A DNA stretch of 64,000 nucleotides from Parasphingorhabdus sp. (GCA_047615875.1 JBLHGU010000001.1:1647-65646); one strand, 5' to 3'. Shown: positions 8,017 through 58,231, numbered from the stretch's first letter. Notes: generated by a model not told the origin, from the sequence alone. Numbers and translations: made by a program.

Positions 8017-8526
8017 TTAGCCCGTGGCAGCCATCGGCATATCATTTTCAATGTCAGAGTAAGTTTGCCAGTAAAAGTCCGCATCCGTCGCACTCATTTT
8101 TCCATACCAGCTCATATAGGCTGCAGATTGTCGAAGTAGATAATCCTTATGGTTACGCACCCAGGTTTCGAAACACCAGTCAGTCATTTCTGGGGCAGGC
8201 ATATTATTTTCGCTAAAGAACGAGGCCAACACTGTTTCGCCTGAATCCAGCTTTACGTAGCAGGGAGCCAGTGCATATTCTTCACCCTCGTAAAACAAAA
8301 TTCTATCCAGTTGTGCTTTAGATAGTCCACAAAGCAATTGCCCTGAGGCGATACGACTCTCATCGACAACCAACATCGGGTAGTCCTCATGAGGAAGCCT
8401 GGCCACACGAAAGTTTTCCAGTTTGCAGGACACCATTGACAGCCGGTCGGTGTTTTCTTCCAGAACACAAGCCACAACATCCCAGTCCATCAGGGATCCG
8501 AAACAAAATAGTGGTGCTTGATTCAT
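8017..8526 (-). CDS. Gamma-glutamylcyclotransferase (AIG2/GGCT-like) family protein
   Basis: The N-terminus MNQAPLFCFGSLMD resembles the GGCT-fold YGSL motif. The start was chosen at the second Met. The C-terminal half was not recognised. Confidence 0.5.
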   Translation of the reverse strand: MNQAPLFCFGSLMDWDVVACVLEENTDRLSMVSCKLENFRVARLPHEDYPMLVVDESRIASGQLLCGLSKAQLDRILFYEGEEYALAPCYVKLDSGETVLASFFSENNMPAPEMTDWCFETWVRNHKDYLLRQSAAYMSWYGKMSATDADFYWQTYSDIENDMPMAATG

Positions 8527-8739
8527 GGCGCAGTCTCTCAAATTGGAGGCCGAATTGTATGGAATATAATATTATTTGCAATAGCGTGACTGTTGTTGAA
8601 GGCTGATTCGAGGTGTAAAAAGCGACTATTTGTGGGTGTTTTTCGAAATTCAACTAATCTTGATGCTGAATGGCCGAGCGCCACGATTCTGCTGGCATGC
8701 TTTATAATAGGCGCATCCGATTCCAACTGTTAAATCGTC

Positions 8740-9564
8740 ATGCTAATAAAAAGTTTTCAGCAAGTAGAAGCCTCTGGAGAGATTGTTCCAATCTCCCACG
8801 GAAAATCCACCGCAGTTCGCGTATTGCTTAAATCTGATGGAATGGGCTTTAGTCTATCGGAAGCACGCTGCGGCGCGCGCAACCGATCTTCGTTGTGGTA
8901 CAAAAATCATTGGGAAGCAAATTATGTGCGGGCAGGTTCTGGTAGCTTGATCGATCGGGATAGAGGCAAAGAGTGGCCGCTCAAGCCAGGCGACCTGTAC
9001 TGTGTGGGGCCTAACGACAGACACAGTGTTGCCAATTCAGATGACCCTCTTCGTATTATTAGTGTCTTTAATCCACCTATTGAAGGGCCGGAAACACATG
9101 ATGAAGATGGCGCCTATCCTCCCACCGGTGAATTGCCTCCACGCACAGACCCCATGTTTGTTAGAGGTATAAGTGACGTTCGTGCCGCCGGTGGAGAAAA
9201 AATTCTGGTGGATGGTAATGTCAGAGCGCTTAGGTTGTTAACCTCCCATGATCAAATGGGGTTTTCGCTATCCGAAGTGCACGTGAAGGCTAGCAGCCAA
9301 CTAGATCTCTGGTACAAGCATCATTGGGAGGCCAATCTGGTTCTTGAGGGAGAGCTTCTAGTTACTCATCGACAAACTGGCGAGCAACATAAGCTTTCCT
9401 TTGGAGATGTCTATTGTGTTGGTCCGAATGACCCGCATCGTCTGGAGCCACAGACTGATGTCAAATTGTTGGCCATTTTCAACCCGCCACTAAATGGTGA
9501 TGAAAAGCATGATGCGGATGGCGCTTACCCACCCACAGGTCCGGTGCCGTCAGGACCAGGCTAG
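8740..9564 (+). CDS. Tandem (duplicated) ectoine-synthase-like cupin protein, EctC-EctC fusion
   Basis: 274 aa made of two homologous halves. Each half has MGFSLSE, LWYK(N/H)HWEAN, GD(L/V)YCVGPND(R/P)H, (V/I)FNPP(I/L)xG and HD(E/A)DGAYPPTG. These motifs parallel canonical EctC (YKHHFEAVYCIEG ... HREDGSYAP). Confidence 0.75.
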   Translation: MLIKSFQQVEASGEIVPISHGKSTAVRVLLKSDGMGFSLSEARCGARNRSSLWYKNHWEANYVRAGSGSLIDRDRGKEWPLKPGDLYCVGPNDRHSVANSDDPLRIISVFNPPIEGPETHDEDGAYPPTGELPPRTDPMFVRGISDVRAAGGEKILVDGNVRALRLLTSHDQMGFSLSEVHVKASSQLDLWYKHHWEANLVLEGELLVTHRQTGEQHKLSFGDVYCVGPNDPHRLEPQTDVKLLAIFNPPLNGDEKHDADGAYPPTGPVPSGPG

Positions 9565-15653: not shown

Positions 15654-15754
15654 AGAATAAAACCTTATTAATTAACTAATTTTTCGCTTTAATTTTGCCG
15701 ATAAATCGACCATTTAGAGGTAGAATCGGCGACTTTGTATTCCGTGACAATTTA

Positions 15755-16270
15755 ATGGACCCGAAAAGCAGTTATTCTAAAGAAGACCTCCTGGCCTGTG
15801 GGCGAGGAGAATTATTTGGTGCGGGCAATGCTCAGTTGCCATTACCGCCTATGTTAATGTTCAACCGTATAACGAATATTACTACCGATGGTGGTGAAAA
15901 CGGCAAAGGCGAAGTAGTCGCAGAGCTGGATATTAACCCCTCTCTGTGGTTTTTCGATTGCCATTTTCAGGGTGACCCGGTTATGCCCGGTTGTCTTGGT
16001 GTAGACGCACTGTGGCAGCTGATCGGTTTCTACCTGGGTTGGCGCGGTGGTCCAGGCCATGGCCGGGCACTGGGTGCTGGTGAAATCCGTTTTACTGGGC
16101 AAATAACCCCAGAATGCCATCTGGTTCGCTATCGGATCTCGTTTAAACGGGTCATTATGAGACGTTTATATATGGGAATTGCTGACGGCCAGGTAGAAGT
16201 CGATGACAAGCTGATTTACACTGGTAAGGATATGCGCGTCGGATTATTTCAAAACACCCAGTCTATGTGA
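15755..16270 (+). CDS. fabA: 3-hydroxydecanoyl-ACP dehydratase/isomerase FabA
   Basis: From ATG 15755: [29 protein letters not shown]...[25 protein letters not shown]. This is near-collinear with E. coli FabA. The track ORF start at 15695 is an upstream extension. Confidence 0.92.
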
Positions 16271-16277
16271 GGCAGTC

Positions 16278-17495
16278 TTGAGAAGAGTAGTAGTCACCGG
16301 AATAGGTATCGTATCCAGTATTGGTAATAATCGTAGCGAGGTTTCTGAATCGTTGCGTCACGGCCGCTCCGGAATTCAATTTGATCAGTCCCATGAGGAA
16401 CTCGGGTTCCGTTCACGGGTGAGTGGCCCGGTTAAGCTTGATCCCAAAGCCTTAATCGATCGAAAACTTTATCGCTTTATGGGCGACGCCGCGGCTTATG
16501 GATATTTAGCCATGCGTGAAGCCGTGGAAGATTCAGGTTTGGAAGAATCAGAAATTTCCCATCCCAGAACTGGCATGATTATCGGTTCCGGTGGTGGGTC
16601 ACCTGAAAATATTGTTGCAGCAGCAGATATTCTTCGTGAACGTGGTGTACGACGGGTGGGGCCTTATAAAGTCACCTCATCCATGTCTAGCACCATGGCC
16701 GCTGTGGTCGGTACTGCCTATAAGATCAAGGGTGTGGGTTATTCAATTAGCTCCGCTTGCGCTACCAGCGCTCACTGTATAGGCAATGCGTCAGAACTAA
16801 TCCAGATGGGCAAGCAGGATATTATGTTTGCCGGTGGTGGAGAAGAATTGCATTGGTCGTTGAGCGTACTATTCGACGGCATGGGTGCATTGTCTTCTAA
16901 ATATAACGACACACCAGAAAAAGCCTCTCGAGCCTACGATGCTGACCGTGATGGGTTTGTTATTGCAGGTGGCGGTGGTGTAGTTGTTCTTGAAGAGCTG
17001 GAGCATGCCAAACAACGTGGTGCGAAGATATATGCCGAGTTGACTGGCTACGGTGCTACCTCTGATGGCTTTGATATGGTTCAACCCTCTGGTGAAGGTG
17101 CTGCTCGCTGTATGCGTCAAGCCCTGGAAACCGTTAAAAACCCGGTTCAATATTTGAATGCGCACGGTACTAGTACACCGGTTGGCGATGTAAAGGAGTT
17201 GGGTGCCATTAAGGAAGTGTTTGGCGATAACCTGCCAGCCATTGCCTCGACTAAATCCCTTACTGGACACGCCCTGGGCGGTGCTGGGGTGAATGAAGCC
17301 ATTTATTCATTGATTATGCTAGAAGAGGGTTTTCTTGCCGCCTCTGCGAATATTGATACTCTGGATCCGGAAGCTGAAGGTTGCCCTATTATTCGTGAGT
17401 TTCAGGAGAGACCTGACCTGGATACGGTGCTATCAAATAGTTTTGGCTTTGGTGGAACGAACTCTACCCTGGTGTTTAGCAAGTATCATAGTTAA
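16278..17495 (+). CDS. fabB: Beta-ketoacyl-ACP synthase I FabB
   Basis: 405 aa. [18 protein letters not shown] parallels E. coli Fab[19 protein letters not shown]. Active-site Cys is in [12 protein letters not shown] and the terminus is SFGFGGTN. It apparently uses a TTG start 8 nt after fabA. Confidence 0.9.
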
Positions 17496-17587
17496 GCAAC
17501 TGTCGCTCAGATACGGTCAAGATAACTGGCCGCTATCTCGATTCTGCGCCAGAGGCCATCGATTTAATATCCAGTCAGGACCGCTAT

Positions 17588-18685
17588 TTGTTTTTTCTCG
17601 AAACCCGTAACGATACTCCTGCAGGCAATCTTTCCTTCGAAGAACAGTCATTAAGAAGAGTCGCCCTGTGGTTATTCAGCTGTTGTGGGCTGGTATTTGC
17701 CATGGTGATATTGGGCGGCGTGACCAGATTGACAGGCTCCGGGTTGTCTATGGTCGACTGGCAACCCATAAAAGGCGCGATCCCACCCCTTTCTGAGGCG
17801 TCGTGGTTGGCAGTATTCGATCAATACAAAAATTTCCCCGAGTTTCAGATGGTGAATCAGGATATGACTTTATCCGGATTCAAGTTCATATTTCTATTTG
17901 AGTATGCTCATCGCCTGCTTGGCCGACTCATTGGTATAGCATTTTTTCTACCGATGGCATGGTTTTGGTGGCGCGGATATCTGAGTTCCTCTTTAAAACC
18001 CAAGCTTATAGTCATGTTTGTTCTCGGCGGTATGCAGGGGTTACTCGGTTGGTACATGGTTAAAAGTGGTCTGGTTAATGACCCTCATGTCAGCCAGTAT
18101 CGGCTGACGGCCCATCTGGTTCTTGCTATTTTGATCTACGCCTACATGCTTTATGTGGCCCGAGATTTACAGGATATTTGCCGTCGAGACCCCCGTCAGA
18201 ATATTCAATCAGCCAGGTTTGAGTGGCTATTGGTCATTGTCGTGCTGGTGATGATTGCCAGTGGTGGTTTGGTTGCTGGAACCCGGGCGGGTTTTATTTT
18301 TAATACCTTTCCGGATATGAACGGACAATGGATCCCGGACGGTCTACTAGCGCTCTCTCCGCTTTGGTTAAACGCCTTCGAAAATATGGTCACCATTCAG
18401 TTCGATCATCGACTGTTGGCCTACGTGCTTATTGCTATGGTGTTATACAATCGGTTTCGGCTGACTGCTAAATCAGACTCCGGTCGTCTAGTGCTGGCCA
18501 ACAGCTTGTTGCTAGTGATAGCCTTACAGGTCTGTTTGGGGATATTTACACTACTGAATCAAGTCCCTGTGGCGTTAGGAGTAATGCATCAGGCTGGGGC
18601 CTTGCTTGTTCTTAGTGTTGCTATATTGCAATTGCATAGAAGCCGATATGTATTGCAATATGATCCATTGGATAAAATTGCTTAG
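17588..18685 (+). CDS. ctaA: Heme A synthase (COX15/CtaA family)
   Basis: 365 aa, 8 TM, with GGVTRLTGSGLSMVDW and His-containing helices (EYAHR, QFDHR, MHQ). The start codon is uncertain (non-ATG). Confidence 0.8.
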   Translation: MFFLETRNDTPAGNLSFEEQSLRRVALWLFSCCGLVFAMVILGGVTRLTGSGLSMVDWQPIKGAIPPLSEASWLAVFDQYKNFPEFQMVNQDMTLSGFKFIFLFEYAHRLLGRLIGIAFFLPMAWFWWRGYLSSSLKPKLIVMFVLGGMQGLLGWYMVKSGLVNDPHVSQYRLTAHLVLAILIYAYMLYVARDLQDICRRDPRQNIQSARFEWLLVIVVLVMIASGGLVAGTRAGFIFNTFPDMNGQWIPDGLLALSPLWLNAFENMVTIQFDHRLLAYVLIAMVLYNRFRLTAKSDSGRLVLANSLLLVIALQVCLGIFTLLNQVPVALGVMHQAGALLVLSVAILQLHRSRYVLQYDPLDKIA

Positions 18686-18727
18686 TAACCGAAATCGGAA
18701 ACCAGAATAAGGAAACATCTATAGATC

Positions 18728-19348
18728 ATGATAAGGCTTTTTCAAATATTTCTGATATCTCAGTTTTTTATGTCGAGTCTGGCGTTAGCTAGCGAAGACT
18801 GGGGTTTTGATGCCCTTATGGAAGAGCTTGCCAAACATCCACAGTTTAGCGCCGACTTTGAAGAGCAACGAAGTTCCATGTTTCTCTCTCGGCCTTTGAA
18901 ATTACATGGAATATTGATATTTGTTGCTAATGAAAAAATGGAAAAAAGAGTAGTCAGGCCCTATGTCGAAACCACAATAATTGATGATGCCGCGGTGGTT
19001 ATCCGTCGCACAAACACTATCGGTAAGGAAGATACCACGCATGTAACCCGTTTCTCACTGGCGGCACATCCAGCTATCGCTAAGGCAATAAACGGCGTGA
19101 GCAACATTTTTTCTGGGGATAGTTCACTTTTGAAGGAATTGTATGATTGGCAGATTGAAGGCCAACGTGATGACTGGGGTCTGTTATTGAAGCCAAAAGA
19201 CGGCAAGTTGGCGGAGTTTATTAGTTCTATTGAGTTGCGAGGGCATGATGGAATCATTACACAGATGAATTCTGTCGAGGCCGACGGCGACGAATCGAAA
19301 ATGGCTTTATCCAATCGATCCACCGATATCCCCGAATTGAATCAATAA
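18728..19348 (+). CDS. LolA-like outer-membrane lipoprotein carrier family protein
   Basis: 206 aa with a signal peptide. The size and pairing with a downstream MMPL/RND exporter match LolA-like/exporter pairs. Motif-level support is weak. Confidence 0.45.
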   Translation: MIRLFQIFLISQFFMSSLALASEDWGFDALMEELAKHPQFSADFEEQRSSMFLSRPLKLHGILIFVANEKMEKRVVRPYVETTIIDDAAVVIRRTNTIGKEDTTHVTRFSLAAHPAIAKAINGVSNIFSGDSSLLKELYDWQIEGQRDDWGLLLKPKDGKLAEFISSIELRGHDGIITQMNSVEADGDESKMALSNRSTDIPELNQ

Positions 19349-19380
19349 ACCACTGATATTTGGCCGACACTGTAAACAGG

Positions 19381-21741
19381 ATGGAAAAGATTAAAATTCA
19401 CCACCCATCCAGAATAATGGCAGTGATCGTAGCGCTAGTTGTGTTAATAGCGCTGGCAGTTAATGTCATGCGCTTTAAAGTTACTACAGACCTCGGTTTA
19501 TTTTTGCCGTCCGGACAGACGGTTCTTGAACAAGTGTTGATGGGCCAACTTGATCGTGGTTCTACATCAAACCTGATTTTCGCTGGCATTGAAGGTGACA
19601 CAAGTGAAAACCTGGCAAAGGTAAGTCAGTCATTTGCTGACCAGCTCGGCCAAACTGAGGGCTTCGTACAGGTACTAAATGGCGCAACGGCCATGAGTAG
19701 CGAAGATCAGAATTGGGTAATGGATAACCGCTACCATTTAACCCCTGCAGATTTAAGTGAGAATTTGTCCGAAGAAGGCCTTGGCCTCGCAATGCAGGAA
19801 CGCCTTAAAGGGTTAATGTCGCCTCTGGCCGCGCTTGAAAAAAAGTTTCTTGCCCGGGACCCAACCGGCGAAATACTTAATCTGCTTAATCAATGGCAGG
19901 GTGATTTGTCGGGCGAGTCGGGACCTGCAAAAGCTAATGGCGTGTGGTTTTCCCAGGACCAGAGCCGGGCTGTAATGATTATCGAGCTTGCCAGTGGTGG
20001 TCTTGATTTAGCAGGACAACAGCAGGCGCTGGATCATATTTTTCAGGTGTTTGAAACAGTCCGAACCGATAAAAGTCGTCTGGTTCTCGCCGGCCCATCA
20101 GTGTTTGCTGTCGAAACCCGTGACATCATCACAGCAGATGTACGCTTTCTGTCCATCTTGGCAACCAGCCTTGTCATTATCTTTTTATTGGCAGTATTTC
20201 GTTCCTTACGACTATTGGGGCTCATTCTTATCCCGATTGTTTCTGGGATTTTAGTGGCATGTGCAGTCGTACTCCTGGCTTTTGACACCATTCATGGCAT
20301 TACACTGGCGTTTGGAATTACCCTTACTGGAGTCGCTGTAGATTACCCCATTCATTTTTTCTCCCACCTGAAAGGCGGGCGTGAAAATGCAGAATCGAGT
20401 ATTCGAAATATCTGGAAAACTCTTGCTTTGGGTGTGTTATCAACCATCATTGCCTATGTAGCACTGGTGTTGTCAGAATTTCGCGGACTGCAACAGCTCG
20501 GCGTTTTCACCGTTTGTGGTTTGCTGGCTGCGGCTGCAGTAACGCGTTGGATTCTGCCCCTGTTGGTTCCTGCTCAACTATCTAAAAAAGCCGGCCTGTC
20601 CTGGGTGCATCAGCTTATGCATTGGTCCGGCAATCGACTCTCAGGCAAAGGCTACTGGTCACTGGCGGTAATTCCGCTGGCTGCCATGCTGGTGTTGGTG
20701 GGTAATACCCCTTTACGTGATCTCGATCCAGATTCTCTAAGCCCCATTGGCCAGGATAGACGTACTCAGGACCGCGACCTTCGAGGTGATCTTGGTTTCT
20801 GGTATGGCGGCAAACTGGCTGTTGTAGTTGCATCGGATAGCGAGACTGCACTACAGCGCAGTGAGCAGCTGCAAGAACAACTTGACGAACTGGTGTCGGC
20901 CGGAGCAATTTCCCGCTTTGACCTGGCTGCAAGTTTTCTACCTAGTCAAAAACATCAGCAGAAGCAGATTGATGCGATACCCGATGAAGAAGAACTCAGG
21001 CGTCGAATATTAGTCGCCCTGAAAGATTCTCCGCTACGTAAAGACATATTCGAAAAATTTGTTGCTCAGGCACAGGCAGCTCGCAGCAAGCCACTGTTGA
21101 CGGTCGACTCGTTGAGCCAGTCTCAAATGGGCGAACGTTTGAAATCGTTATTGTTCGAGCAGAATGGCTTATGGATTGCACCAGTTCTGCTGCATGGTGT
21201 AACTGATGAATCTGCGTTGCAAGTACTTAATCAACAGGATTCGGATACTCAAGTTCTTTATTTGAATATTAAGCAGCGAGCAGCAGCTATTCTGGGTGAT
21301 GCTCTGGATCGCCTTGTGCCTTTGTTATTGCTGGGCGTTCTGGTTATTTATATTTTGCTTGCGTTAGCGTTTAAGAGCTTATTCAGGCCACTGTTAATAC
21401 TGATGCCAACCATATCTGCTGTTGCCGTCACCGTGGCAATTCTCAATGTTCTGGGTATTTCAATGACATTAATGCATATGGTGTCACTGCTGCTTATTAT
21501 TGGTCTGGGCCTGGATTATGCCTTGTTCTTTAATCGAATTAATGATGAGAAAGATGAATGGCACACCACCTTTAAGGCTCTATGGGTTTGTTGTTTTACA
21601 ACAGTTCTGGTTTTCGGCATCCTTATTATCTCTGTCACACCACCGCTACAGGCTATCGGTGCCACTGTGGGTACTGGCGCTTTGCTTTGCCTCATATTCG
21701 GAGCATGCTGGACAAGACGAAGCCCAGTTGCGAGTTCCTAA
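19381..21741 (+). CDS. MMPL / RND-superfamily membrane exporter
   Basis: About 786 aa with two 5-6-TM bundles, each preceded by a large periplasmic domain (pseudo-duplicated architecture). The GITLTGVAVDYPIHFF and GLGLDYALFF motifs are typical of MMPL/SSD transporters. Confidence 0.7.
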   Translation: MEKIKIHHPSRIMAVIVALVVLIALAVNVMRFKVTTDLGLFLPSGQTVLEQVLMGQLDRGSTSNLIFAGIEGDTSENLAKVSQSFADQLGQTEGFVQVLNGATAMSSEDQNWVMDNRYHLTPADLSENLSEEGLGLAMQERLKGLMSPLAALEKKFLARDPTGEILNLLNQWQGDLSGESGPAKANGVWFSQDQSRAVMIIELASGGLDLAGQQQALDHIFQVFETVRTDKSRLVLAGPSVFAVETRDIITADVRFLSILATSLVIIFLLAVFRSLRLLGLILIPIVSGILVACAVVLLAFDTIHGITLAFGITLTGVAVDYPIHFFSHLKGGRENAESSIRNIWKTLALGVLSTIIAYVALVLSEFRGLQQLGVFTVCGLLAAAAVTRWILPLLVPAQLSKKAGLSWVHQLMHWSGNRLSGKGYWSLAVIPLAAMLVLVGNTPLRDLDPDSLSPIGQDRRTQDRDLRGDLGFWYGGKLAVVVASDSETALQRSEQLQEQLDELVSAGAISRFDLAASFLPSQKHQQKQIDAIPDEEELRRRILVALKDSPLRKDIFEKFVAQAQAARSKPLLTVDSLSQSQMGERLKSLLFEQNGLWIAPVLLHGVTDESALQVLNQQDSDTQVLYLNIKQRAAAILGDALDRLVPLLLLGVLVIYILLALAFKSLFRPLLILMPTISAVAVTVAILNVLGISMTLMHMVSLLLIIGLGLDYALFFNRINDEKDEWHTTFKALWVCCFTTVLVFGILIISVTPPLQAIGATVGTGALLCLIFGACWTRRSPVASS

Positions 21742-21869: not shown

Positions 21870-22349
21870 TTAAACAATTTTTGCCTTACTTACAATCACA
21901 CCATCTGCATCAGCATAAATATAGTCGCCACTATTAAATTCGGCTCCGCCGAATGCCAGCAGAACATCTTGCTCGCCTTTAGTTGCGGGGATGTATTTTC
22001 GAGAGCACGTGCCTAAGGCAAACAAAGCCACCGGAATATCCTTGATTTGAACTGTATCTCTGATGTACCCGTTGATAACCATGCCAGCGTAATTGTTCTG
22101 CTGTGCAAACTGCATTAGTTTTTCACCCACAACAGCATAATAAGCCTGGTCTACGTCGACCACGACGACTTTGCCGGTACCGTCAACATCTCTCAACATG
22201 ACCAGCAGATCCGAATTGTGTCTATCTAGTTTCAGGGTGACGACTTCGCCCTCACACTTCACTGCACCACCGTAATTGCTGTAACCAGCACCCAGTACAG
22301 TCACTTTGTCACTATGTTGGTCACAGATATCTGCGGTGAAAAACGTCAT
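21870..22349 (-). CDS. rraA: RraA family protein (RNase E regulator / HMG-oxaloacetate aldolase fold)
   Basis: MTFFTADICDQHSDKVTVL ... GAVKCEGEVVT ... GEKLMQFAQQNNYAGMVINGYIRD is collinear with RraA. The start was taken at the internal Met (22349). Confidence 0.8.
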   Translation of the reverse strand: MTFFTADICDQHSDKVTVLGAGYSNYGGAVKCEGEVVTLKLDRHNSDLLVMLRDVDGTGKVVVVDVDQAYYAVVGEKLMQFAQQNNYAGMVINGYIRDTVQIKDIPVALFALGTCSRKYIPATKGEQDVLLAFGGAEFNSGDYIYADADGVIVSKAKIV

Positions 22350-22619
22350 GAATGTATCCTCTTGAATTGAAATCGCAGGCATTCTAACACCCTTGTTCTT
22401 CTTCTCATAAGCATTGGATAGGAGATTCAGGATGTCCTTACGGTATAATGCCCGGCTAGCAGCAATCTCCCTCTTAATTCTGTAAAAATGGCGCTCTCAA
22501 TACTTGCTTGGGCATGTGGAGTCGGGTAAGGGCGCGGATCGGGCACAAAGCCTGGTGCCGCCTGGGATAAAGCAGCCCTTATTTATAAACTTTTAATAAA
22601 CTTAAATTATGAAGGCAAT

Positions 22620-23030
22620 ATGAAGGTCGTAACTGGCGTAGTGGGCAACGACATCCACGTTGTGGCGAACAGGCTCATTGATCTTTCCTTGCAGGCCAGA
22701 GGATATGAAGTGTTCAACCTGGGGGTGAATACCCATCTCGAGGAATTTTTTGATGCAGCGGTGGAAACCGGGGCAGATGCACTGCTGATTTCTTCCCTTA
22801 ATGGCGAAGCAGAAGGCTGGGGTCGCGAGGTTAAGCTGCTAAAGAGCAAATACAAAACCCTGGATGACCTTATTCTGATGATCGGAGGAAATCTGGTTGT
22901 TGGCACTGGCAACACCGAGGACATTGTTGCGAGATACAAGAACTATGGTTTCGACCTGGTTTGTCATCAGGTTGACCTGAATACCGGCTTAGATATGTTG
23001 AAAGATTTTCTTGAAGGGAAAAGCCAATGA
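22620..23030 (+). CDS. glmS: Glutamate mutase small (sigma, B12-binding) subunit, GlmS/MutS-like
   Basis: 136 aa. B12-binding fold motifs are GNDIHVVAN (DxHxxG with Gly replaced by Ala), SSL and IGGN. It is collinear with clostridial MutS/GlmS as remembered. Confidence 0.85.
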   Translation: MKVVTGVVGNDIHVVANRLIDLSLQARGYEVFNLGVNTHLEEFFDAAVETGADALLISSLNGEAEGWGREVKLLKSKYKTLDDLILMIGGNLVVGTGNTEDIVARYKNYGFDLVCHQVDLNTGLDMLKDFLEGKSQ

Positions 23031-24391
23031 GCCTGTTACAGGAAGAAAGAGAAATCATTCTTAGCAATGAATACGTCGATGCGTTTGATTTTGCAGAAGT
23101 GGCAGATTTTGTCACCAATGCCAGTGCGGATCTATTTATCTCCCACCACTTTGAGACGAATAGTAAAATGCTGGTTCAACCCAGAGGTGGGTTCCCTACT
23201 TATCAGCAGCAGTTTGCATTGTACGAGTCTTTTCGCGACGCCAACGTTGATGTTCTGCCGCTAACAGTTGATTCCAATACTCGACTCAACGATTACGCAA
23301 CCGCCCAGAAAATGCTTCGCTTAAGTGAGGAGAACGACATGGATATGCTTAATGGTTATCCGTTGGTGATCCACGGTTATCGAACGACTCGCAAGATGAT
23401 CACCCATTTTAATAAGCCAGTGAGCCTACGCCACGGAACGCCGGACGCCAGATTGCTTATTGAAACGGCAATTGCCTCAGGGATTTTTGAGATTGAAGGT
23501 GGGCCCATTACCTATGTACTACCTTACTCAAAAAACTTTCCGATCGATAAAGCATTTTTGTACTGGAAGTACGTAGAACGGGTTTGTGCAAACTATTCAA
23601 AGCTAAATAAGCCTATAAATCGGGAATCTTTCGGGCCACTAACAGCCACTCTGGTTCCGCCGTCAATCACTATTGTTATTCAAATTCTGGAGATGTTGCT
23701 TTCTCTCGAAGAGGGCGTTAAGTCCTTTTCAGTGTCTTTTGCCCAGCAGGGTTCGATGACACAGGATATTGTTGCCGGCACAGTTTTAAGGAAATTGGCG
23801 AAACATTATGCAGCCGAAATTAACTGTGACGACGCCGCAATTCACCTGGTGTACCACCAGTGGATGGGGGCCTTCCCGACCAATCAGAACTTTGCTGATC
23901 AGTTGATTAATCTTTCAACGGTGATTGCTAAAATGGTTGGCGCGGATAAGATCATTACTAAAACCAGGGAAGAAGCTACAGGTATTCCTACCAAGGAGAT
24001 GAACGCAAAAACCGTTGCGGACACACAGTATTGCCTGGGCATACTTAACGGCCTACCCACTGTCGTTGACGAGCAGGAAGAAGAGATTCTGTCGCTAGAA
24101 GTTCAAGCTATCATGGAGGCTGTGCTCAATGATCCAGCCGATACCCTGTGGCGTAAAGTGTTTAATTCAATTAAAAGTGGCATTATTGACGTGCCCTTTT
24201 CACCACATATCATTAATCAAAATGCCATGATTACCGTCCGGGACGCTGACAAGAATATCAGGATAATAGAGCGCGGAAATGTGCCTATTCCTGATCGATG
24301 TTATGAGTATGAGCGGGCTCAATGCGATCTAACAAAAGATACAACGAGTATTGTTAATGACATTATTCATGATATTGGGATTATGCAATGA
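23027..24391 (+). CDS. glmE: Glutamate mutase large (epsilon) subunit, GlmE/MutE-like (methylaspartate mutase E)
   Basis: 454 aa. QPRGGF, DSNTRLNDY, LRHGTPDARLL, EIEGGPITYVLPYSKN, FGPLTATLVPPS and HQWMGAFP parallel C. cochlearium GlmE, including the remembered substrate-binding Arg/Glu/Tyr positions. The start overlaps the glmS stop (ATGA). Confidence 0.88.
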   Translation: MSLLQEEREIILSNEYVDAFDFAEVADFVTNASADLFISHHFETNSKMLVQPRGGFPTYQQQFALYESFRDANVDVLPLTVDSNTRLNDYATAQKMLRLSEENDMDMLNGYPLVIHGYRTTRKMITHFNKPVSLRHGTPDARLLIETAIASGIFEIEGGPITYVLPYSKNFPIDKAFLYWKYVERVCANYSKLNKPINRESFGPLTATLVPPSITIVIQILEMLLSLEEGVKSFSVSFAQQGSMTQDIVAGTVLRKLAKHYAAEINCDDAAIHLVYHQWMGAFPTNQNFADQLINLSTVIAKMVGADKIITKTREEATGIPTKEMNAKTVADTQYCLGILNGLPTVVDEQEEEILSLEVQAIMEAVLNDPADTLWRKVFNSIKSGIIDVPFSPHIINQNAMITVRDADKNIRIIERGNVPIPDRCYEYERAQCDLTKDTTSIVNDIIHDIGIMQ

Positions 24392-25581
24392 CCGATGTGA
24401 ATGACAAGTTGTTGATTGATGTTGGCAGCACCTATTTCAAGGTCAGCACGACCAACGCGATAGAGCAGCATTTCAGAGACTTCAATAAAGATATCCTGGA
24501 TGATTTGATGACCAAGTGCGGTGAAACTATTCGTAGTTTTAGTAGTCAGGATATCCATATTTGCTCTTCAGCTAATGGTGGTTTGAGCACTCTGATTATC
24601 GGATTAACCAATTCTTTTTCTTTAAAGTACGCCACCAATATCGCTTTCAATTCCGGTGTTAATGTTGTCGACACCATTCTCTATCAGGATATTGAAGAAT
24701 ATTCTCTGCCCAGTGATCTCATTGATGTGGTACTCATTGTGGGTGGGATAAATAACCATAGTGAATTGTTCTCCGATAACTTGTTTCGCTATATCGAGCA
24801 GCTGAACTATTCAAACATTGTTTATGCTGGCTCCGCCCTGGATGCCCCCAGGATAAGCGATAACATTAAAAACGTAGTGGTGTTGCCCAATATAGTCGAT
24901 GACCGACTACATATCGTAGAACAGCACCTGAAGGAGTATTTAACTAATCTCTACCAGCAGGATATTGAAGGTAAAGAAGACATTAAGCACCTTTACGACA
25001 TTACCGAAAATCAGATCTTTTCGACACCCTATGTTGTGAACAACGCGTTACCGATGATCAATGCAAAGTTTTCAGTATCCGACCCTTTTATTTTGTTGGA
25101 TATCGGTGGCGCTACCACGGATATCCACTATTCGAAGGATCTGGTGGAAGACAATATTGTGACAGAGAATGAATACGATAGACTGGTGTTCAAGCGATTA
25201 GGTGTTTACAAATCTAAACAGTCGTTAATTTTTGCCGCCCAGGGTAACGAGTTTGTATACGAACTCCTTACGCACCTTAAAGTTACGGAAAATATTTTTC
25301 ATGAGCATGGTGAAAAAGCAACCAAAATATTGATGCAACTGGCCATCTTTCTGGTGTTATTTAAAATGTCGCGCTATGGCGAGTCGAACATCAATCTGAA
25401 GCTGGCGAAAGTTAATTCTATTGTGATGACAGGTGGTATCACTAAGGTTTTGAGGATTGAAGAGATTGAACAAATTATCGTCTTTTTTTATAAAAAGATT
25501 CTTACATCAGACCACAACCCAGTTACCGTGTTGGACAGCAACTACGATATTTGGACCCTTGGAGCCAGGGAGATTCAGTGA
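24388..25581 (+). CDS. glmL: GlmL/MutL-type glutamate mutase accessory (reactivating) ATPase, actin-fold
   Basis: 397 aa. The N-terminal LLIDVGSTYFKV and the second phosphate motif LLDIGGATTDIH are typical of the GlmL family. The start overlaps the glmE stop (ATGA). Confidence 0.75.
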   Translation: MTDVNDKLLIDVGSTYFKVSTTNAIEQHFRDFNKDILDDLMTKCGETIRSFSSQDIHICSSANGGLSTLIIGLTNSFSLKYATNIAFNSGVNVVDTILYQDIEEYSLPSDLIDVVLIVGGINNHSELFSDNLFRYIEQLNYSNIVYAGSALDAPRISDNIKNVVVLPNIVDDRLHIVEQHLKEYLTNLYQQDIEGKEDIKHLYDITENQIFSTPYVVNNALPMINAKFSVSDPFILLDIGGATTDIHYSKDLVEDNIVTENEYDRLVFKRLGVYKSKQSLIFAAQGNEFVYELLTHLKVTENIFHEHGEKATKILMQLAIFLVLFKMSRYGESNINLKLAKVNSIVMTGGITKVLRIEEIEQIIVFFYKKILTSDHNPVTVLDSNYDIWTLGAREIQ

Positions 25582-27155
25582 TGTCAATTAATTGTATGAG
25601 AGCAGTTCTCGAAGATGCAGTGCAAAGTCACAACGACAAAACTGCAGTTATTTTCAACGAAAAAAGTCTGACTTATGGCGACTTATTTAAAAGAGTTAAC
25701 CAGGTTGCCAGCTATCTGAAAGAGCTAAATTTACCCAGCAACTCACGAATCGGTGTTTACTCTAATAAGGGTATTGAGCAAGTAATTGCCATACTGAGCA
25801 TCTTGTCTACTGACTATGTTTTGGTGCCACTGACAAAACTGCTAAAGCCGGAGCAAGTTGAATACATCATTAACGACTGTGATATTAAATGTATTATCAC
25901 CGACAAATTGAAACTCGAAAGTATCGAGGAAATTAACTTCAACGGGCACGTTATTTCCTATGAAACTGCCGGCAAAGATGTCGCATCTTTCGAGGAGATT
26001 TATAAATACTACAAAAAATCCTTTAACTGCGACATTAATGGGCATGACAATGCGGTTATCACCTATTCGTTTGGACTGACAGGAAAGCCTAAAGGCATAG
26101 TGATATCCCATCGTAATTTGATTGAGTCCGCGCGGGTTGTGTCCCAGTATTTGAACTTGCGCGAGGATGACATTGTATCCGGACTGCTCATTTTTAACCT
26201 TGATTATGGTCTCAATCAAATCTTCTGTACGCTCTATAAGAGAGCAACGTTGGCACTACACCGATTGATTCTGCCAGGAGATTTTTTCAATCACTTGATA
26301 GACGATAAAATCACCGTACTGCCGCTGATGCCCGTCAATATTTCACAAATATTTGATGAAGGTTTGCATCGGATGCCCAGTGCAGAACTTTTTGATAGCC
26401 TCAGAATTATCACATCCTCGGGTGGAAATGTGACACCTAATATGATCAAGGATTGTAATCAAACATTTCGAAACGCTGCCTTTTACTCAATGCATGGACT
26501 TACCGAAGCATTTCGTTCGACTTATCTCGACCCTTCTCAAGTAGAAATAAGACCCAAGTCCATTGGTAAGGCCATTCCGGATGTCGAGCTTTATGTGATC
26601 AACGATGAGGGTAAGGAATGTGCGCCGCGCGAAATAGGCGAGTTAATTCACCGAGGTGGGTATATATACAGGGGGTTCTGGAATGCACCAGAAGAGAACG
26701 AGCAACGTTTCAAGTCAGTACAAATCCTCAAAGAGGTGATTAACCTGGAAGGGCAGTTAACCGACGAGATCGTCGTGGCCACTGGCGACTATGTTTATAA
26801 GGACGAGGAAGGTTACTTCTATTTCGTTTCACGACATGACGATATGATCAAAACTCGGGGCTTTAGGGTGTCACCCTACGAAGTCGAATCAGTTGTTAGA
26901 GACAACATCCCCAAGATTGACCAATGTGCCGTGTTTGCCATAGATAATGAGCTTATCGAAGAGGAAATTGTACTGGCTTATTCAGCAACCACGGAAATCA
27001 GCGAGAAAGAGATTCTCTTCGAATTAAAAAAACACCTGGCCTCTTATATGATTCCCAGCCGAGTGGTATACAAAAAATCTTTACCGTTGGTGCAAAGTGA
27101 CAAAAATAAGATTAACAAAGAAGCGCTGAAACGAGAATTAACCGGACAGAGGTAG
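25581..27155 (+). CDS. Adenylate-forming enzyme (ANL superfamily; acyl/aminoacyl-AMP ligase)
   Basis: About 524 aa from ATG 25581, which overlaps the glmL TGA by 1 nt. It has a divergent P-loop TYSFGLTGKPKG, plus GDYVYKDEEGYFYFVSRHDDMIKTRGFRVSPYEVE and a C-terminal SDKNKINK. No carrier-protein or condensation domain is attached. Confidence 0.8.
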   Translation: MSINCMRAVLEDAVQSHNDKTAVIFNEKSLTYGDLFKRVNQVASYLKELNLPSNSRIGVYSNKGIEQVIAILSILSTDYVLVPLTKLLKPEQVEYIINDCDIKCIITDKLKLESIEEINFNGHVISYETAGKDVASFEEIYKYYKKSFNCDINGHDNAVITYSFGLTGKPKGIVISHRNLIESARVVSQYLNLREDDIVSGLLIFNLDYGLNQIFCTLYKRATLALHRLILPGDFFNHLIDDKITVLPLMPVNISQIFDEGLHRMPSAELFDSLRIITSSGGNVTPNMIKDCNQTFRNAAFYSMHGLTEAFRSTYLDPSQVEIRPKSIGKAIPDVELYVINDEGKECAPREIGELIHRGGYIYRGFWNAPEENEQRFKSVQILKEVINLEGQLTDEIVVATGDYVYKDEEGYFYFVSRHDDMIKTRGFRVSPYEVESVVRDNIPKIDQCAVFAIDNELIEEEIVLAYSATTEISEKEILFELKKHLASYMIPSRVVYKKSLPLVQSDKNKINKEALKRELTGQR

Positions 27156-30365: not shown

Positions 30366-30745
30366 AAAAGCGTCGGAAAAATGTAGTCAATGGCGTTGGA
30401 GTGCTCGATTTTCCCTATAACAGAATGGCTTTTCGGGGCAACTTTCTGCCGGTCACTTTACAAATCGATCAGGCAGTAACATACCCCAAACGTTCGTTCA
30501 AAAGCAAATGGGCCGCTTCCAAGCCACCAGTGAATATTAATATTTTTAGCTACTTACAAACCTGGTGACGACGTGTTCTTATACGTCAATATGACGTCTT
30601 ATCATGGTTATGTGGAGAGCGCTATCGATAAAACTGGCAACTCCGATTTAAAGAATAGATAATTAATTTTTCTTTTCGGGAAATGAGTCAACTAACAAGT
30701 CTGTTAGTCAGTAAGCAAAATAAAAATAATATGGGAGAATACAAT

Positions 30746-31277
30746 ATGATTTCTGTAGCAGCTGTCCAGCACCCATCTAATTACCTAAATCGAGGTGGTT
30801 GTCTTGAACGGGCTGTCGAGATAATCAAACAGGCTGCGAACGACAATATAGAACTTCTTGTTTTTCCTAAAGGATGGTTGCCTGGATATCCAATGTTTGT
30901 TTGGAAATGACTCCGACAACAATTCGGGTGAGTTCGATCAGTTTTATCGGCGGCTTTTTTCAAATTCAATTGACCTGTCCAAAGATCAGCTGGCGCCGGT
31001 TCGAGAGGCTGCACGCGAATATGGCGTAGTTGTGGTGTGTGTAAATGAGTGTGCCGGAGAATTGAGCGCAGGCACTATTTACAATACGGCGGTAACGATA
31101 GACACCACTGGCGAAATACTAAATGTTCACAGAAAAGTGATGCCGACCAATGCTGAACGCACGGTTTGGGGGTTTGGCGATGGTCACTACTCACGTCTGG
31201 ATATTTTTAAGCTTGAGGTAGACCGCCAACCTAGAACACCCGTTACCTTCATTACTTCCAATCATTCAGAGATTTGA
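30746..31277 (+). pseudogene. Nitrilase / C-N hydrolase family gene remnant (active-site substitution, frameshift, 3' truncation)
   Basis: MISVAAVQHPS...ELLVFPKGWLPGYP has the catalytic FPE Glu read as Lys. The frame changes near 30900-30910, then continues as ...IYNTAVTIDTTGEILNVHRKVMPTNAERTVWGFGDGH. Similarity ends before the CWE Cys motif. Confidence 0.7.
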
Positions 31278-43225: not shown

Positions 43226-44065
43226 ATGTATCAAAAAGCTGAACAGTTTCTAGAATTACATAGCTCTGGAAAAACATTTGTTATGCCCAATGCCTGGAAT
43301 GCAGGTAGTGCTATGGTGTTGGTGGAGGCAGGGTTTACATCCATTGCAACAACCAGCGCTGGCATTGCATTCTCCAAAGGGCTGCCGGATTATCAGAATA
43401 AATTATCCTTTGATGATGCATTACTGGAAACCCGTCGCATTGCAGCGGCTGTAGACGTGCCGGTTAGCATGGACTCCGAAAACTGTTATGGCGATTCAGC
43501 TCAGGCAGTATATGACAACATGATTAAAATTGCCGCAACCGGCGTGGTTGGCGCGAGCATTGAGGATCATGAACCAAACTCCAGTGAGCCTCTTTATGAA
43601 TTTGAGCTGGCGGTGGAAAGGGTTCAGGCAGCACGGGAGGCGCTGAACGGACTCGATTATCCCTTTGTATTAACTGCCAGAGCCGAATGTTATCTGGTGG
43701 GCCATGCATCGCCACTCGAAGAGTCCATTCGACGAGTGAATAGTTACAGAGAGGCCGGAGCAGATTGCCTTTATATTCCGGGTGTTCGAGATATACAGAC
43801 AATAGCGACATTGGTTAAAGAAGTTAACGGGCCACTAAATGTCGTAATGGGTCTATCTGGACCACCGTTGACTGTTGCAGAACTGGCTGACGTTGGAGTG
43901 GCAAGAATAAGCATTGGTGGTTCTTTAGCGCGGGCAACTTTGGGACTGGTTCGAAAGGCTGCCGATGAAATACTTAATCAGGGCGTGTTTAATTACGCTG
44001 CAGGACAAATTCCTGATGCAGAATTGTGTGAGCTTTTTGCAGAAAAATCATCCAATGTAAGATAA
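43226..44065 (+). CDS. Isocitrate lyase / PEP mutase superfamily protein (methylisocitrate-lyase-like)
   Basis: 279 aa. FVMPNAWNAGSA, TTSAG and GASIED motifs of the ICL/PEPM TIM-barrel family. Confidence 0.7.
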   Translation: MYQKAEQFLELHSSGKTFVMPNAWNAGSAMVLVEAGFTSIATTSAGIAFSKGLPDYQNKLSFDDALLETRRIAAAVDVPVSMDSENCYGDSAQAVYDNMIKIAATGVVGASIEDHEPNSSEPLYEFELAVERVQAAREALNGLDYPFVLTARAECYLVGHASPLEESIRRVNSYREAGADCLYIPGVRDIQTIATLVKEVNGPLNVVMGLSGPPLTVAELADVGVARISIGGSLARATLGLVRKAADEILNQGVFNYAAGQIPDAELCELFAEKSSNVR

Positions 44066-44113
44066 CACCGAGATATTGCTAGACCCCTTGCCGCTGATTG
44101 CCTGGAAATAATT

Positions 44114-44950
44114 ATGAATGACTATGTAAAGCCCGAACGTTGGGCGAAACCTGAAAACAAAATCTTTTCTTATCAAGTAGGCTTTACCTCGCCGCCCTAT
44201 GACTTTGATGCCGCACCGAGTGACTTTCTGCGAATTTCACCCCCATCTGTTGGCGTCCATGGACGCATGCTGCATGTGCCGGGCTACGTTCATCAATTAT
44301 CCCAACGCACCAGCAATTATCATTTGTTAGACGAATTCGTTGAGTGCATGGCTAACAACGGAGCTGATGTTTGTGGTCAGGTAGGAACTAACTGGGTGCA
44401 TGCTTCGGGCAGAACTCCAGATGAAATTCGTGATATGTGTAATCGCATTAGTGATACCTATCAAACGCCGTTTCATATGGCGGGTATGTGTCTGGTTGAA
44501 GGTTTGCGAGAACTCGGTGCTGAGCGTATTGCGATAAATTCTGTATACTACTGGCCCGATTGGCGCGATGGAATCGCCCGGTTTTTAAAGGAGGCAGGTT
44601 TTGATGTGGTCTACTACGGCAACTTCGTGGATCTGGAAATGTATCCTACACAACAAGATGTAAACGACTTAACCTGGGTATTTCCTGCTGATGTGGCGAA
44701 TCGTTCCATGCAAAGAATCGCCGAGTTAGCGCCAGATATAGACGCCTTTGTGGTTAATGGTATGCCTAATTTTCGTCTCGAAGATGGACTGACCCAACGA
44801 ATGGTGTCAAGAGAAGTAGAACTTGAAAAGCTGGTGGGTAAACCAATAGTGTCATCAGATAGTGCCTTGTATTGGCGCATCTATAAAACACTGGGAATTG
44901 GTCCAGTAACCCAACAGGGAAGGTTGTTATCTACCCTGAAGAGTCACTGA
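44114..44950 (+). CDS. Asp/Glu/hydantoin racemase-fold protein (maleate isomerase / arylmalonate decarboxylase-like)
   Basis: 278 aa. The assignment rests on overall pattern and size only and is tentative. Confidence 0.4.
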   Translation: MNDYVKPERWAKPENKIFSYQVGFTSPPYDFDAAPSDFLRISPPSVGVHGRMLHVPGYVHQLSQRTSNYHLLDEFVECMANNGADVCGQVGTNWVHASGRTPDEIRDMCNRISDTYQTPFHMAGMCLVEGLRELGAERIAINSVYYWPDWRDGIARFLKEAGFDVVYYGNFVDLEMYPTQQDVNDLTWVFPADVANRSMQRIAELAPDIDAFVVNGMPNFRLEDGLTQRMVSREVELEKLVGKPIVSSDSALYWRIYKTLGIGPVTQQGRLLSTLKSH

Positions 44951-50555: not shown

Positions 50556-52082
50556 ATGTATACCAGTAATTACTTAGCCAGCAAGCTTCGTTTGGCAACC
50601 CTTGATCGACCTGATGCTGTTTTTGCCCGAATCCATGAGACTGGCGAGATAATCTCCTATGCAGATTTCTTTGAAGCTTCCGAGCGTCTGGCGTCAGCGA
50701 TGGTCTCTGCTGGAGTGAAGCCCGGTGATCGGGTTGCTATGCAAGTTAAGAAATCGATCCACGCGTTGCAGCTTTACATGGCCACAATATTGGCTGGTGG
50801 CGTGTTCTTGCCTTTAAACACGGCTTATACCGCTAAAGAAGTTAGCTATTTTCTAGGCGATGCAGAACCGGCACTTTTCGTATGTGATCCAGAGCGCTAT
50901 GAATCTTTAGTTGCAGTCGCACAACAGTGCGGTGTTGCAACCGTATGGACGTTGTCTGGAAATGGCGAGGGCACCTTAATTGATGCACAGCGTGCCGCAA
51001 ATAGTGGGTTCGAAGCGGTATCGAGACAGGCAGATGATCTTGCAGCGATCCTCTATACCTCGGGCACAACGGGAAGATCCAAAGGCGCGATGTTAAGTCA
51101 TAATGGATTAGCCTCCAATGCAGAGGTGTTGCAGGTTTACTGGGAATTTAACCAGGACGATGTATTGATACATGCACTACCCATTTTTCACACCCATGGT
51201 TTATTTGTCGCCACTAATATTACGATGACGGCCGGTTCAGCCATGATTTTTATGGCGTCTTATAATGCTGAGGCCATTATTGACTATATGCTTTCTGCGA
51301 CAGTGTTAATGGGTGTGCCGACTTTTTATGTGCGATTGCTTGAGCAGGCAGAACTCGCTAATGCGGCTGCGAATATGCGTTTGTTCGTGTCAGGCTCTGC
51401 GCCTTTATTAGCCGAGACCCATCATAGTTGGAGTCGAGTCACAGGCCATGCCATTCTTGAGCGCTATGGTATGACAGAGACCAACATGAATACTTCTAAT
51501 CCTTACCATGGTGAGCGGATTGCCGGTACAGTGGGCTTTCCGTTGCCGGGTGTGGAGGTTGTAATAACTGATCCACAAACTGCTGTAGAACTTTCCCCCG
51601 GTGAGATTGGTATTCTAGAAGTGCGCGGCCCAAACGTGTTTATGGGTTATTGGCGCATGCCAGAGAAAACCGCAGAGGAGCTCAGGTCTAATGGTTTTTT
51701 TATTACCGGAGACTTAGGTTTAATTGATGATAAAGGCTATGTGCAGATTGTGGGTCGTGATAAAGATCTGATTATTTCTGGTGGATATAATATTTATCCG
51801 AAAGAAATTGAATTGCTTATCGATGATTTGCCAGGCGTAAAAGAATCTGCAGTGATTGGTGTGGCGCACCCAGATTTTGGCGAAGCTGTGGTCGCCGTTA
51901 TTGTGCCGGCAGCTGACCAGAAACTTGATGAAGATAATATTGTTCGTGGTTTGCAAGATGATCTGGCTAGATTTAAACAACCCAAGCGTCTATTCTTTGT
52001 GGACGAATTGCCACGCAATGCGATGGGCAAAGTGCAGAAAAATCTTTTAAGAGACAGGTATGCGAGTTTGTTCACGGATTGA
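50556..52082 (+). CDS. Malonyl-CoA-synthetase-like (MatB-like) acyl-CoA synthetase
   Basis: 508 aa. YTSGTTGRSKG P-loop, GYWRMPEKT and GDLGLIDDKGYVQIVGRDKDLIISGGYNIYPKEIE. The N-terminal third is collinear with rhizobial MatB as remembered. Confidence 0.7.
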   Translation: MYTSNYLASKLRLATLDRPDAVFARIHETGEIISYADFFEASERLASAMVSAGVKPGDRVAMQVKKSIHALQLYMATILAGGVFLPLNTAYTAKEVSYFLGDAEPALFVCDPERYESLVAVAQQCGVATVWTLSGNGEGTLIDAQRAANSGFEAVSRQADDLAAILYTSGTTGRSKGAMLSHNGLASNAEVLQVYWEFNQDDVLIHALPIFHTHGLFVATNITMTAGSAMIFMASYNAEAIIDYMLSATVLMGVPTFYVRLLEQAELANAAANMRLFVSGSAPLLAETHHSWSRVTGHAILERYGMTETNMNTSNPYHGERIAGTVGFPLPGVEVVITDPQTAVELSPGEIGILEVRGPNVFMGYWRMPEKTAEELRSNGFFITGDLGLIDDKGYVQIVGRDKDLIISGGYNIYPKEIELLIDDLPGVKESAVIGVAHPDFGEAVVAVIVPAADQKLDEDNIVRGLQDDLARFKQPKRLFFVDELPRNAMGKVQKNLLRDRYASLFTD

Positions 52083-52141
52083 AAGTCATTGAAAGCAATT
52101 AACCACTAATAACATTCTTCCATAAGAAGCGGATTTGTGAA

Positions 52142-52373: not shown

Positions 52374-52455
52374 TTTCTGTAAAGCCGTTTGGGATGGTTG
52401 TCTTTTCTCTGCATACTGGATACAGTATGCAGAGAAAGATATTTAGGAGAACAAA

Positions 52456-58228: not shown

Positions 58229-58231
58229 GCT

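Follow-up and report, generated by a model that had tools for sequence, protein, structure and literature searches.

Glutamate mutase is known from two settings. In glutamate fermentation and in the methylaspartate cycle it acts together with methylaspartase; in a few actinomycete natural-product pathways it is paired with an enzyme that loads an acyl carrier protein (ACP). In the vicenistatin pathway of Streptomyces halstedii, the mutase (VinH/VinI) is linked to a stand-alone adenylation (A) domain-type enzyme, VinN, and is accompanied by the ACP VinL and the decarboxylase VinO. The coupling of glutamate mutase to activation of 3-methylaspartate is thereby already known. A third setting is described here, in a 64,000-nucleotide (nt) stretch of DNA labelled Parasphingorhabdus sp. 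(GCA_047615875.1, JBLHGU010000001.1:1647-65646), referred to below in its whole length as the window. At positions 22620-27155 it carries an operon, or cassette, for the mutase subunits GlmS and GlmE, a GlmL-family protein and a stand-alone adenylating enzyme (hereafter the ligase). This setting is carrier-less and lyase-less, and has a gene for an RraA-like protein as its partner; what sets it apart is that architecture, the RraA-like partner, and its breadth and conservation. The sequence evidence suggests that the module may turn L-glutamate into an activated 3-methylaspartyl unit for an acceptor encoded elsewhere, a reading that we hold to be evenly balanced between right and wrong.

The window was scanned against Pfam, NCBIfam and Rfam families and for tRNA genes, the latter scan giving no match over its whole length. 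Distribution was determined by exact-sequence look-ups and by a scan with one genome per species, through which a ligase relative was found in at least 174 species-level genomes. For synteny, 80 genome loci were fetched, together with two loci of a ligase clade of about 60% identity. Full-text searches found no literature on this combination of mutase and ligase.

Organisation and conservation of the operon

The four genes follow one another on the plus strand. GlmS, the B12-binding sigma subunit (136 amino acids (aa); 22620-23030; PF02310, NF002612), is followed by GlmE, the catalytic epsilon subunit (454 aa; 23027-24391; PF06368, TIGR01503), by a GlmL/MutL-family protein (397 aa; 24388-25581; PF13941), and by the ligase, an ANL-type adenylating enzyme (524 aa; 25581-27155; PF00501 and PF13193). 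Stop and start codons overlap at each junction, as ATGA at 23027-23030, ATGA at 24388-24391 and TGATG at 25579-25583. These reading frames and all three junctions lie where a preliminary description of the window, made from the sequence alone, had placed them. The overlaps at the three junctions indicate that the four genes are translationally coupled; that description had called them "translationally fused", which is right as to the coupling through codon overlaps and wrong as to fusion. The conserved unit begins further upstream than had been described, at the divergent gene for the RraA-like protein (159 aa; 21870-22349, minus strand; PF03737).

The order GlmS-GlmE-GlmL-ligase was found in all 80 fetched loci wherever the contig extends, and so the operon linkage is not due to chance. 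The same five genes make up the loci of the second ligase clade, which comes from Arcobacteraceae, Sulfurospirillum and Marinarcus. Examination of synteny in relatives, as had been proposed, thus gave one gene order in the 80 loci and in the two of the divergent clade, none of them with methylaspartase. The cassette belongs to a widespread module of five or six genes and is not a peculiarity of the source genome. The records name as its hosts Gammaproteobacteria (Halieaceae, Colwellia, Neptuniibacter, Amphritea, Cellvibrionales, Vibrio, Reinekea, Paraglaciecola and Granulosicoccus) and Campylobacterota (Sulfurimonas, Arcobacter, Halarcobacter and Poseidonibacter), with a single metagenome-assembled genome (MAG) each from Desulfobulbaceae and Rhodothermales.

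Across these hosts cassette identity is 75-90%, although GC content has adapted to each host. Median pairwise identity is highest for GlmE (88%), in which 243 of the 454 residues are invariant, followed by GlmS (81%), the ligase (78%), GlmL (75%) and the RraA-like protein (72%). Cassette GC content follows that of the host over a range of 28% to 57% (r = 0.955), which rules out recent horizontal transfer as the cause of the high identity. Together with the high protein conservation, this indicates a module that is long resident and under strong purifying selection, and that has not spread recently.

No carrier protein, condensation domain, non-ribosomal peptide synthetase (NRPS), polyketide synthase (PKS), pyridoxal phosphate (PLP)-dependent decarboxylase or lyase/methylaspartase accompanied the cassette in more than 80 loci. 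Clustering of 1,404 flanking open reading frames (ORFs) at two stringencies gave no conserved neighbours beyond the RraA-like gene and an aminotransferase gene. The earlier claim that such genes are missing nearby therefore holds for the cassette as a family; within the window it needs amending, as a FabA-like/ketosynthase pair, which is not conserved, lies 5-7 kilobases (kb) upstream (15695-17495). No gene call in the window had a Pfam match to methylaspartase, in agreement with what had been described.

The divergent promoter region (22350-22619) was delimited by motif comparison of upstream regions and a promoter scan. Upstream regions of 60 loci, from Sulfurimonas to Gammaproteobacteria, share ATTCTAGCA...TTTG(C/A)TATCAT. 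On the strand of the RraA-like gene ATTCTAGCA reads TGCTAGAAT, and the divergent promoter pair (22381-22440 in the window) is conserved across phyla. The window has ATTCTAaCA at 22381-22389 (reverse complement TGtTAGAAT) as the extended -10 element for the RraA-like gene. The start of that gene, giving 159 aa, was taken from the gene call in locus L002 and from the conserved extended -10 at 22381-22408; the frame itself is open to 22382. After ATTCTAaCA there follow a degenerate element on the glmS side and a GC-rich 5' leader of about 170 nt, whose sequence is not conserved. GC-rich, hairpin-forming 5' leaders precede glmS in the window and in many Halieaceae, with unrelated sequences. The Rfam scan of the whole window found no family, and no cobalamin riboswitch before glmS.

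Mutase subunits and the substrate pocket of the ligase

GlmS scored 148 bits against NF002612 (cut-off 110) and 98 bits against TIGR01501 (cut-off 136). It keeps D11, H13 and the SSL and GG motifs, while the glycine of the base-off/His-on motif DxHxxG is replaced by alanine (DIHVVA). The preliminary description had drawn attention to this substitution, and alignment bore it out: DIHVVA lies opposite DCHAVG of the crystal-structure protein, and the alanine is fixed in all 67 orthologues. GlmE scored 390 bits against PF06368, with Clostridium cochlearium glutamate mutase as its best structure match (E = 6e-80). By our own count on an alignment to C. cochlearium GlmE, R53, R86 and R135 correspond to the arginine claw (R66, R100 and R149) and E157 to E171; Y163 and Y167 to the two tyrosines of that enzyme; and K312 and E316 to the cofactor contacts K326 and E330. 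These eight residues are invariant in 72 orthologues. The four substrate-binding motifs that had been quoted as retained are all present in the translation, and the residues in them that align with those of C. cochlearium are among the invariant ones. Every catalytic residue of the mutase that could be mapped thus appears intact, and it is very likely that GlmS and GlmE carry out genuine glutamate mutase chemistry.

The third protein, GlmL, matched PF13941 at 96.8 bits (cut-off 27). At 397 aa, against a model of 459 positions, it falls about 60 aa short of canonical GlmL, and its identity is 68-84% across 79 loci. Its sequence places it in the broad MutL family, as a divergent subfamily, and it is presumed to be an ATP-dependent reactivase or chaperone of the mutase.

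Comparison with the catabolic operon of clostridia and of Escherichia coli plasmid pC16EC0292-1 showed that S, E, L and the catalytic residues are held in common. The annotated plasmid reads S-L-E-methylaspartase-...-fumarate hydratase, whereas the cassette reads S-E-L, so that the difference in gene order noted earlier was confirmed. Methylaspartate ammonia-lyase, mesaconase and the dicarboxylate symporter are missing from the cassette, and the coupled ligase stands in their place. Since there is no lyase, the cassette is not an operon of the mesaconate pathway. Its GlmE is nonetheless nearest to the catabolic clade, at 34-40% identity, versus about 30% to Streptomyces mutases. An annotated secondary-metabolite cluster of Streptomyces has S and E without L, alongside an ACP, an AMP-binding protein and a condensation-domain protein; the cassette, by contrast, has GlmL.

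For the ligase, the best NCBIfam model was TIGR03098, at 433 bits against a cut-off of 592. Full-length matches in the PDB were LgrA (202 bits summed over two A domains, 108 + 91), VinN (121) and malonyl-CoA synthetase (120). Judged by these sequence matches, the ligase is nearer to the A domains of NRPSs than to acyl-CoA ligases. In the alignment, the aspartate of its FNLDYG motif lies opposite the aspartate that binds the amino group in A domains. The ordinary acyl-CoA ligase of the window (50556-52082) has instead an FHTHG-type motif, without the aspartate and arginine of the ligase. A search of the ligase against 50% representatives was swamped by multi-module NRPSs; the only single-domain representative, P0122 (59% identity), came again from the same cassette.

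In VinN, the determinants for 3-methylaspartate are D230, the bulky F231, S299, and a beta13-beta14 loop shortened by one residue, in which K330 and R331 lie (PMC11253843). Residues 190-330 of the ligase were therefore searched alone against the 177,635 sequences of the PDB, as a single sequence and then as a family profile. VinN was the top match of all for the single sequence (E = 0.03). With the family profile it was found at E = 4e-6, the next enzyme, 4CL2, being at 2.6e-4; in the same profile search, TycA engineered for beta-phenylalanine with a shortened loop outscored wild-type TycA. The alignment to VinN is gapless at the determinants, pairing D208-Y209 with D230-F231, S280 with S299 and F311-R312 with K330-R331, and the loops are of equal length. 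In 241 family members D208, Y209, G210, N212, Q213, M250, P251, M304, F311, R312 and S313 are invariant, as is S280 in a sample of 28. Foldseek comparison of the ligase model with the PDB matched ANL enzymes indiscriminately, all of them near E = 1e-35. The similarity to VinN appears local to the pocket, and VinN is not the closest relative overall. Comparison with VinN-type and acyl-CoA enzymes, as had been suggested, thus had a divided outcome: the pocket region matches VinN best, but over the full length the nearest family is TIGR03098. These data make it probable that 3-methylaspartate is the substrate of the ligase.

TIGR03098 comprises exosortase A system-associated acyl-CoA ligases; in polysaccharide loci they occur with the TIGR03099 PLP-dependent decarboxylase and an ACP. 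Ligases of this type (33% identity), on Aureimonas pAU20a and Sinorhizobium meliloti pSymB, are the closest annotated relatives of the cassette ligase. Both loci have an ACP, and at the Aureimonas locus a PLP-dependent decarboxylase lies beside the ligase; the logic is that of VinN, VinL and VinO. They have an identical TEAFRSTYLDP loop, and the aspartate and arginine are common to both. The cassette ligase differs in scoring below the family cut-off, in lacking an adjacent decarboxylase or ACP, and in having tyrosine after the aspartate where the relatives have alanine (position 236). Its A10 loop (residues 500-516; 27078-27128 in the window) is two residues longer than in these relatives and has no fixed lysine.

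Proposed reactions and competing readings

A gene for the RraA-like protein was present in 64 of the 67 loci that hold glmS, lying no more than 6 kb upstream in 59 of them. The protein reached 133.5 bits against NF006875, just under the cut-off of 136, and its best PDB match was 2pcn (E = 1e-27). Its sequence indicates the fold of RraA, HMG/CHA aldolase and oxaloacetate decarboxylase. It shares with the RraA family both this fold and an invariant Arg-Asp pair: G86-E87...R108-D109 is conserved, and R108-D109 is invariant. It differs from that family in being tied to a mutase operon rather than to aromatic-compound catabolism or RNase E, and in its RDxxQ motif. According to Mazurkewich et al. 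(2014), HMG/CHA aldolase-type enzymes reportedly have a metal-binding and catalytic motif, G-X20-R-D-X2-E/D or a variant. Two motifs exist among RraA/HMG-CHA aldolase enzymes; these class II pyruvate aldolases also decarboxylate oxaloacetate, by way of a pyruvate enolate (PMC5065237).

The second partner, an AspC/TyrB-type aminotransferase (PRK09257, 553 bits), is encoded at 40 loci, half of the 81 analysed, all in Gammaproteobacteria, and its gene is convergent with that of the RraA-like protein. Its median identity of 77% is like that of the cassette, and it diverges in step with GlmE (r = 0.75). It is absent from the 64-kb window and from the loci of Campylobacterota. Together, the RraA-like protein and the aminotransferase suggest a second fate for 3-methylaspartate.

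From the intact catalytic residues, GlmS and GlmE would form an adenosylcobalamin-dependent mutase converting L-glutamate to (2S,3S)-3-methylaspartate, and from its family membership GlmL would keep the mutase supplied with intact cofactor. The VinN-like determinants suggest that the ligase would take 3-methylaspartate as a beta-amino acid, with Asp208 on the amino group and Arg312 on the alpha-carboxylate, and would adenylate the C4 carboxyl. The equilibrium of glutamate mutase lies towards glutamate (K = 0.093; PMC8307300), and ATP consumption by the ligase could pull it away from there. A thiol encoded outside the module, on CoA or on the phosphopantetheine arm of a carrier protein, may then take over the acyl group from the adenylate; this is the weakest step, proposed by analogy with the nearest relatives. 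Where an AspC-type aminotransferase is present, it and the RraA-like protein could convert 3-methylaspartate to 3-methyloxaloacetate and then to 2-oxobutyrate and CO2 as an overflow or homeostasis branch, and the transamination would regenerate glutamate from 2-oxoglutarate. This route is treated as a side branch because the ligase, and not the aminotransferase, is the invariant coupled partner.

In its working the module would resemble the first steps of the vicenistatin pathway. As in that system, the mutase is linked to a stand-alone A-domain-type enzyme, and the ligase has the aspartate, adjacent aromatic residue, serine and short beta13-beta14 loop with arginine of VinN. An ACP, a PLP-dependent decarboxylase and a PKS are, however, absent from the cassette loci, and the hosts are not actinomycetes. 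With no carrier, decarboxylase or PKS, and with a ligase nearest to TIGR03098, the cassette is not a member of the vicenistatin system. The earlier proposal was of a genuine glutamate mutase whose product a VinN-type enzyme activates with ATP, the acceptor having no gene nearby; intact residues, a VinN-like pocket and more than 80 loci devoid of an acceptor support that proposal and strengthen it.

Several observations weigh against this reading. No acceptor gene was found at any locus. The match of the pocket region to VinN is weak in absolute terms (30 bits), the full-length score of 121 bits is no better than that of other A domains, and K330 of VinN is replaced by phenylalanine in the ligase. 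The position that HMMER aligns with the catalytic A10 lysine is K, Q, R, G or E among the 241 family members. The AF2 model of the ligase has a mean pLDDT of 73.8, falling below 50 in the pocket loops. GlmE is slightly under the cut-off of the TIGR01503 equivalog (367.7 versus 390.1 bits), and GlmL is far below that of NF040745 (78.7 versus 475). Finally, the RraA-like protein has RDxxQ in place of RDxxE/D, with glutamine at position +3 in 58 of 64 sequences.

The strongest alternative makes the side branch the main task: starting from glutamate (in net terms, from 2-oxoglutarate), the module would make 2-oxobutyrate by a B12-dependent route, as a source of isoleucine or propionyl-CoA. The aminotransferase would move the amino group of 3-methylaspartate to 2-oxoglutarate, the RraA-like protein would decarboxylate the resulting 3-methyloxaloacetate, and the ligase would act later or off the main line. 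Phillips et al. (1972) are said to have described a route of this kind in E. coli, from glutamate through beta-methylaspartate and 2-oxobutyrate to isoleucine. The near-universal presence of the RraA-like gene, the co-evolution of the aminotransferase with the cassette in 40 loci, and the oxaloacetate decarboxylase activity in the RraA/HMG-CHA aldolase family (PMC5065237) all speak for it. It would, however, leave the VinN-like pocket unexplained, and it depends on an aminotransferase that is missing from the window and from Campylobacterota, while the invariant and translationally coupled partner is the ligase. The RraA-like protein, moreover, has no acidic residue at motif position +3. We consider this route unlikely to be the main function. 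It is distinctly unlikely, in turn, that the ligase works carrier-free, whether by transferring the 3-methylaspartyl group directly onto an amine, onto a housekeeping macromolecule such as a protein, tRNA or envelope component, or by cyclising the adenylate; such activity would amount to a B12-dependent modification or small-molecule pathway of a new kind. Streptothricin biosynthesis offers a precedent, its amide bonds being made by ORF19, an A domain that stands alone; EF-P, which is modified by the EpmB/EpmA pair of aminomutase and ligase, offers another. The lack of a carrier in more than 80 loci would fit, as would an A10 loop altered relative to ACP-loading relatives, and extreme purifying selection despite GC amelioration is what would be expected of a partner of conserved cell machinery. 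The nearest relatives nevertheless use an ACP. That the module is self-contained and B12-dependent, its ligase joining the beta-carboxyl of 3-methylaspartate directly to a universal cellular acceptor or amine without a dedicated carrier protein, is doubtful; were it so, marine Gammaproteobacteria and Campylobacterota would commonly contain a metabolite or macromolecular modification not known before, and their need for cobalamin would have a new physiological reason.

Two further readings change the substrate. If the ligase instead made the CoA thioester of a non-amino dicarboxylate, mesaconate for example, the module would be a lyase-independent variant of the methylaspartate/mesaconate pathway. 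NCBIfam and the source annotations do read acyl-CoA ligase, and malonyl-CoA and oxalate-CoA ligases are among the PDB and Foldseek matches. But the ligase lacks the histidine-containing A4 motif of the acyl-CoA ligase in the window, having the A-domain aspartate instead, and methylaspartase, hydratase and CoA-ester lyase were not found at any locus, which makes such a pathway very unlikely. Alternatively, the mutase might act on a modified glutamate, for example 4-hydroxyglutamate made by the RraA-like protein, as an aldolase joining pyruvate and an aldehyde, together with the aminotransferase; the mutase would yield a branched hydroxy-amino acid, which the ligase would then activate. An aldolase combined with an AspC-type transaminase is a known way to 4-substituted glutamates, as in the monatin route. 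The sub-threshold equivalog score of GlmE and the clade-specific change from glycine to alanine in the B12 motif would be in keeping with an altered substrate, and RraA-like enzymes are class II pyruvate aldolases (PMC5065237). This reading is purely speculative and highly improbable, as the known glutamate-binding residues are all unchanged and the aminotransferase is dispensable in many lineages.

Activation of 3-methylaspartate for an acceptor encoded elsewhere is thus the reading that we prefer, and the product of the module is probably a still-unknown piece of B12-dependent metabolism. The hosts (Halieaceae, Colwellia, Oceanospirillales, Vibrio, Sulfurimonas and Arcobacter) are ecologically important marine bacteria. 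The identity of the product would give a function to thousands of genes annotated as "AMP-binding protein" or "methylaspartate mutase" in marine metagenomes, and would add a B12-dependent process to marine microbial physiology.

Neighbouring genes and other features of the window

A small operon of lipid type adjoins the cassette upstream, at 15695-21741 on the plus strand, with genes for a FabA/ApeI-like dehydratase, a ketosynthase, a heme A synthase-like protein (CtaA), LolA_3 and an MMPL transporter, but none for an ACP. This FabA-like/ketosynthase/LolA/MMPL operon was considered as a partner and ruled out, as its synteny with the cassette is not kept in other genomes.

Other neighbours vary by lineage. 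One Campylobacterota contig, L089, has a zeta-toxin/AAA_33-like kinase gene and a 74-aa ORF between glmE and glmL (8042-8814); both products were considered as carriers, and neither is one. The same locus has a two-component system between the RraA-like gene and glmS, and, beyond the ligase and a single ORF lacking a Pfam match, RelB/YafQ and HepT/MNT toxin-antitoxin pairs. In four Arcobacteraceae loci (L042, L046, L053 and L086), genes for a TPR lipoprotein and a DsbA-like thioredoxin separate the RraA-like gene from glmS. An EamA-family transporter gene is divergent from glmS in L042 and L046, while further ORFs intervene in L053 and L086; a metabolite exporter beside the Arcobacteraceae operon may hint at a secreted product. 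In Sulfurimonas the neighbours are a DctP-type binding protein, a DUF4015 protein and a 114-aa protein, the latter two having no model match. These lineage-specific neighbours in Arcobacter and Sulfurimonas give no clue to the pathway.

At the far end of the window (50556-64000, plus strand) is a bacterial-microcompartment locus of unusual content. Its shell proteins are an EutN/CcmL vertex protein, BMC-H and a CsoS1D-like BMC-T. The locus also encodes an AMP-binding ligase, an aldehyde dehydrogenase, a DAO-type FAD oxidase, RidA, and proteins resembling glutamine synthetase, Ldh/Mdh and, by a faint match, octopine dehydrogenase, together with an amino-acid-type ABC binding protein with permeases. 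No classical signature enzyme (Pdu, Eut or glycyl radical enzyme) was seen between 50556 and 64000. Between the cassette and this locus, two short ORFs at 30683-31277 are the parts of a broken nitrilase-family (CN_hydrolase) gene, probably a pseudogene. At 43226-44950, 16 kb from the cassette, a gene of the PEP_mutase family (methylisocitrate lyase/oxaloacetate decarboxylase superfamily) adjoins one of the Amdase family, which comprises arylmalonate decarboxylase and maleate isomerase.

The source MAG is labelled by NCBI as Parasphingorhabdus sp., an alphaproteobacterium, while the closest relatives of its cassette (89-90%) are from MAGs of Gammaproteobacteria. The taxonomy of the bin, or the placement of this contig within it, may be wrong.

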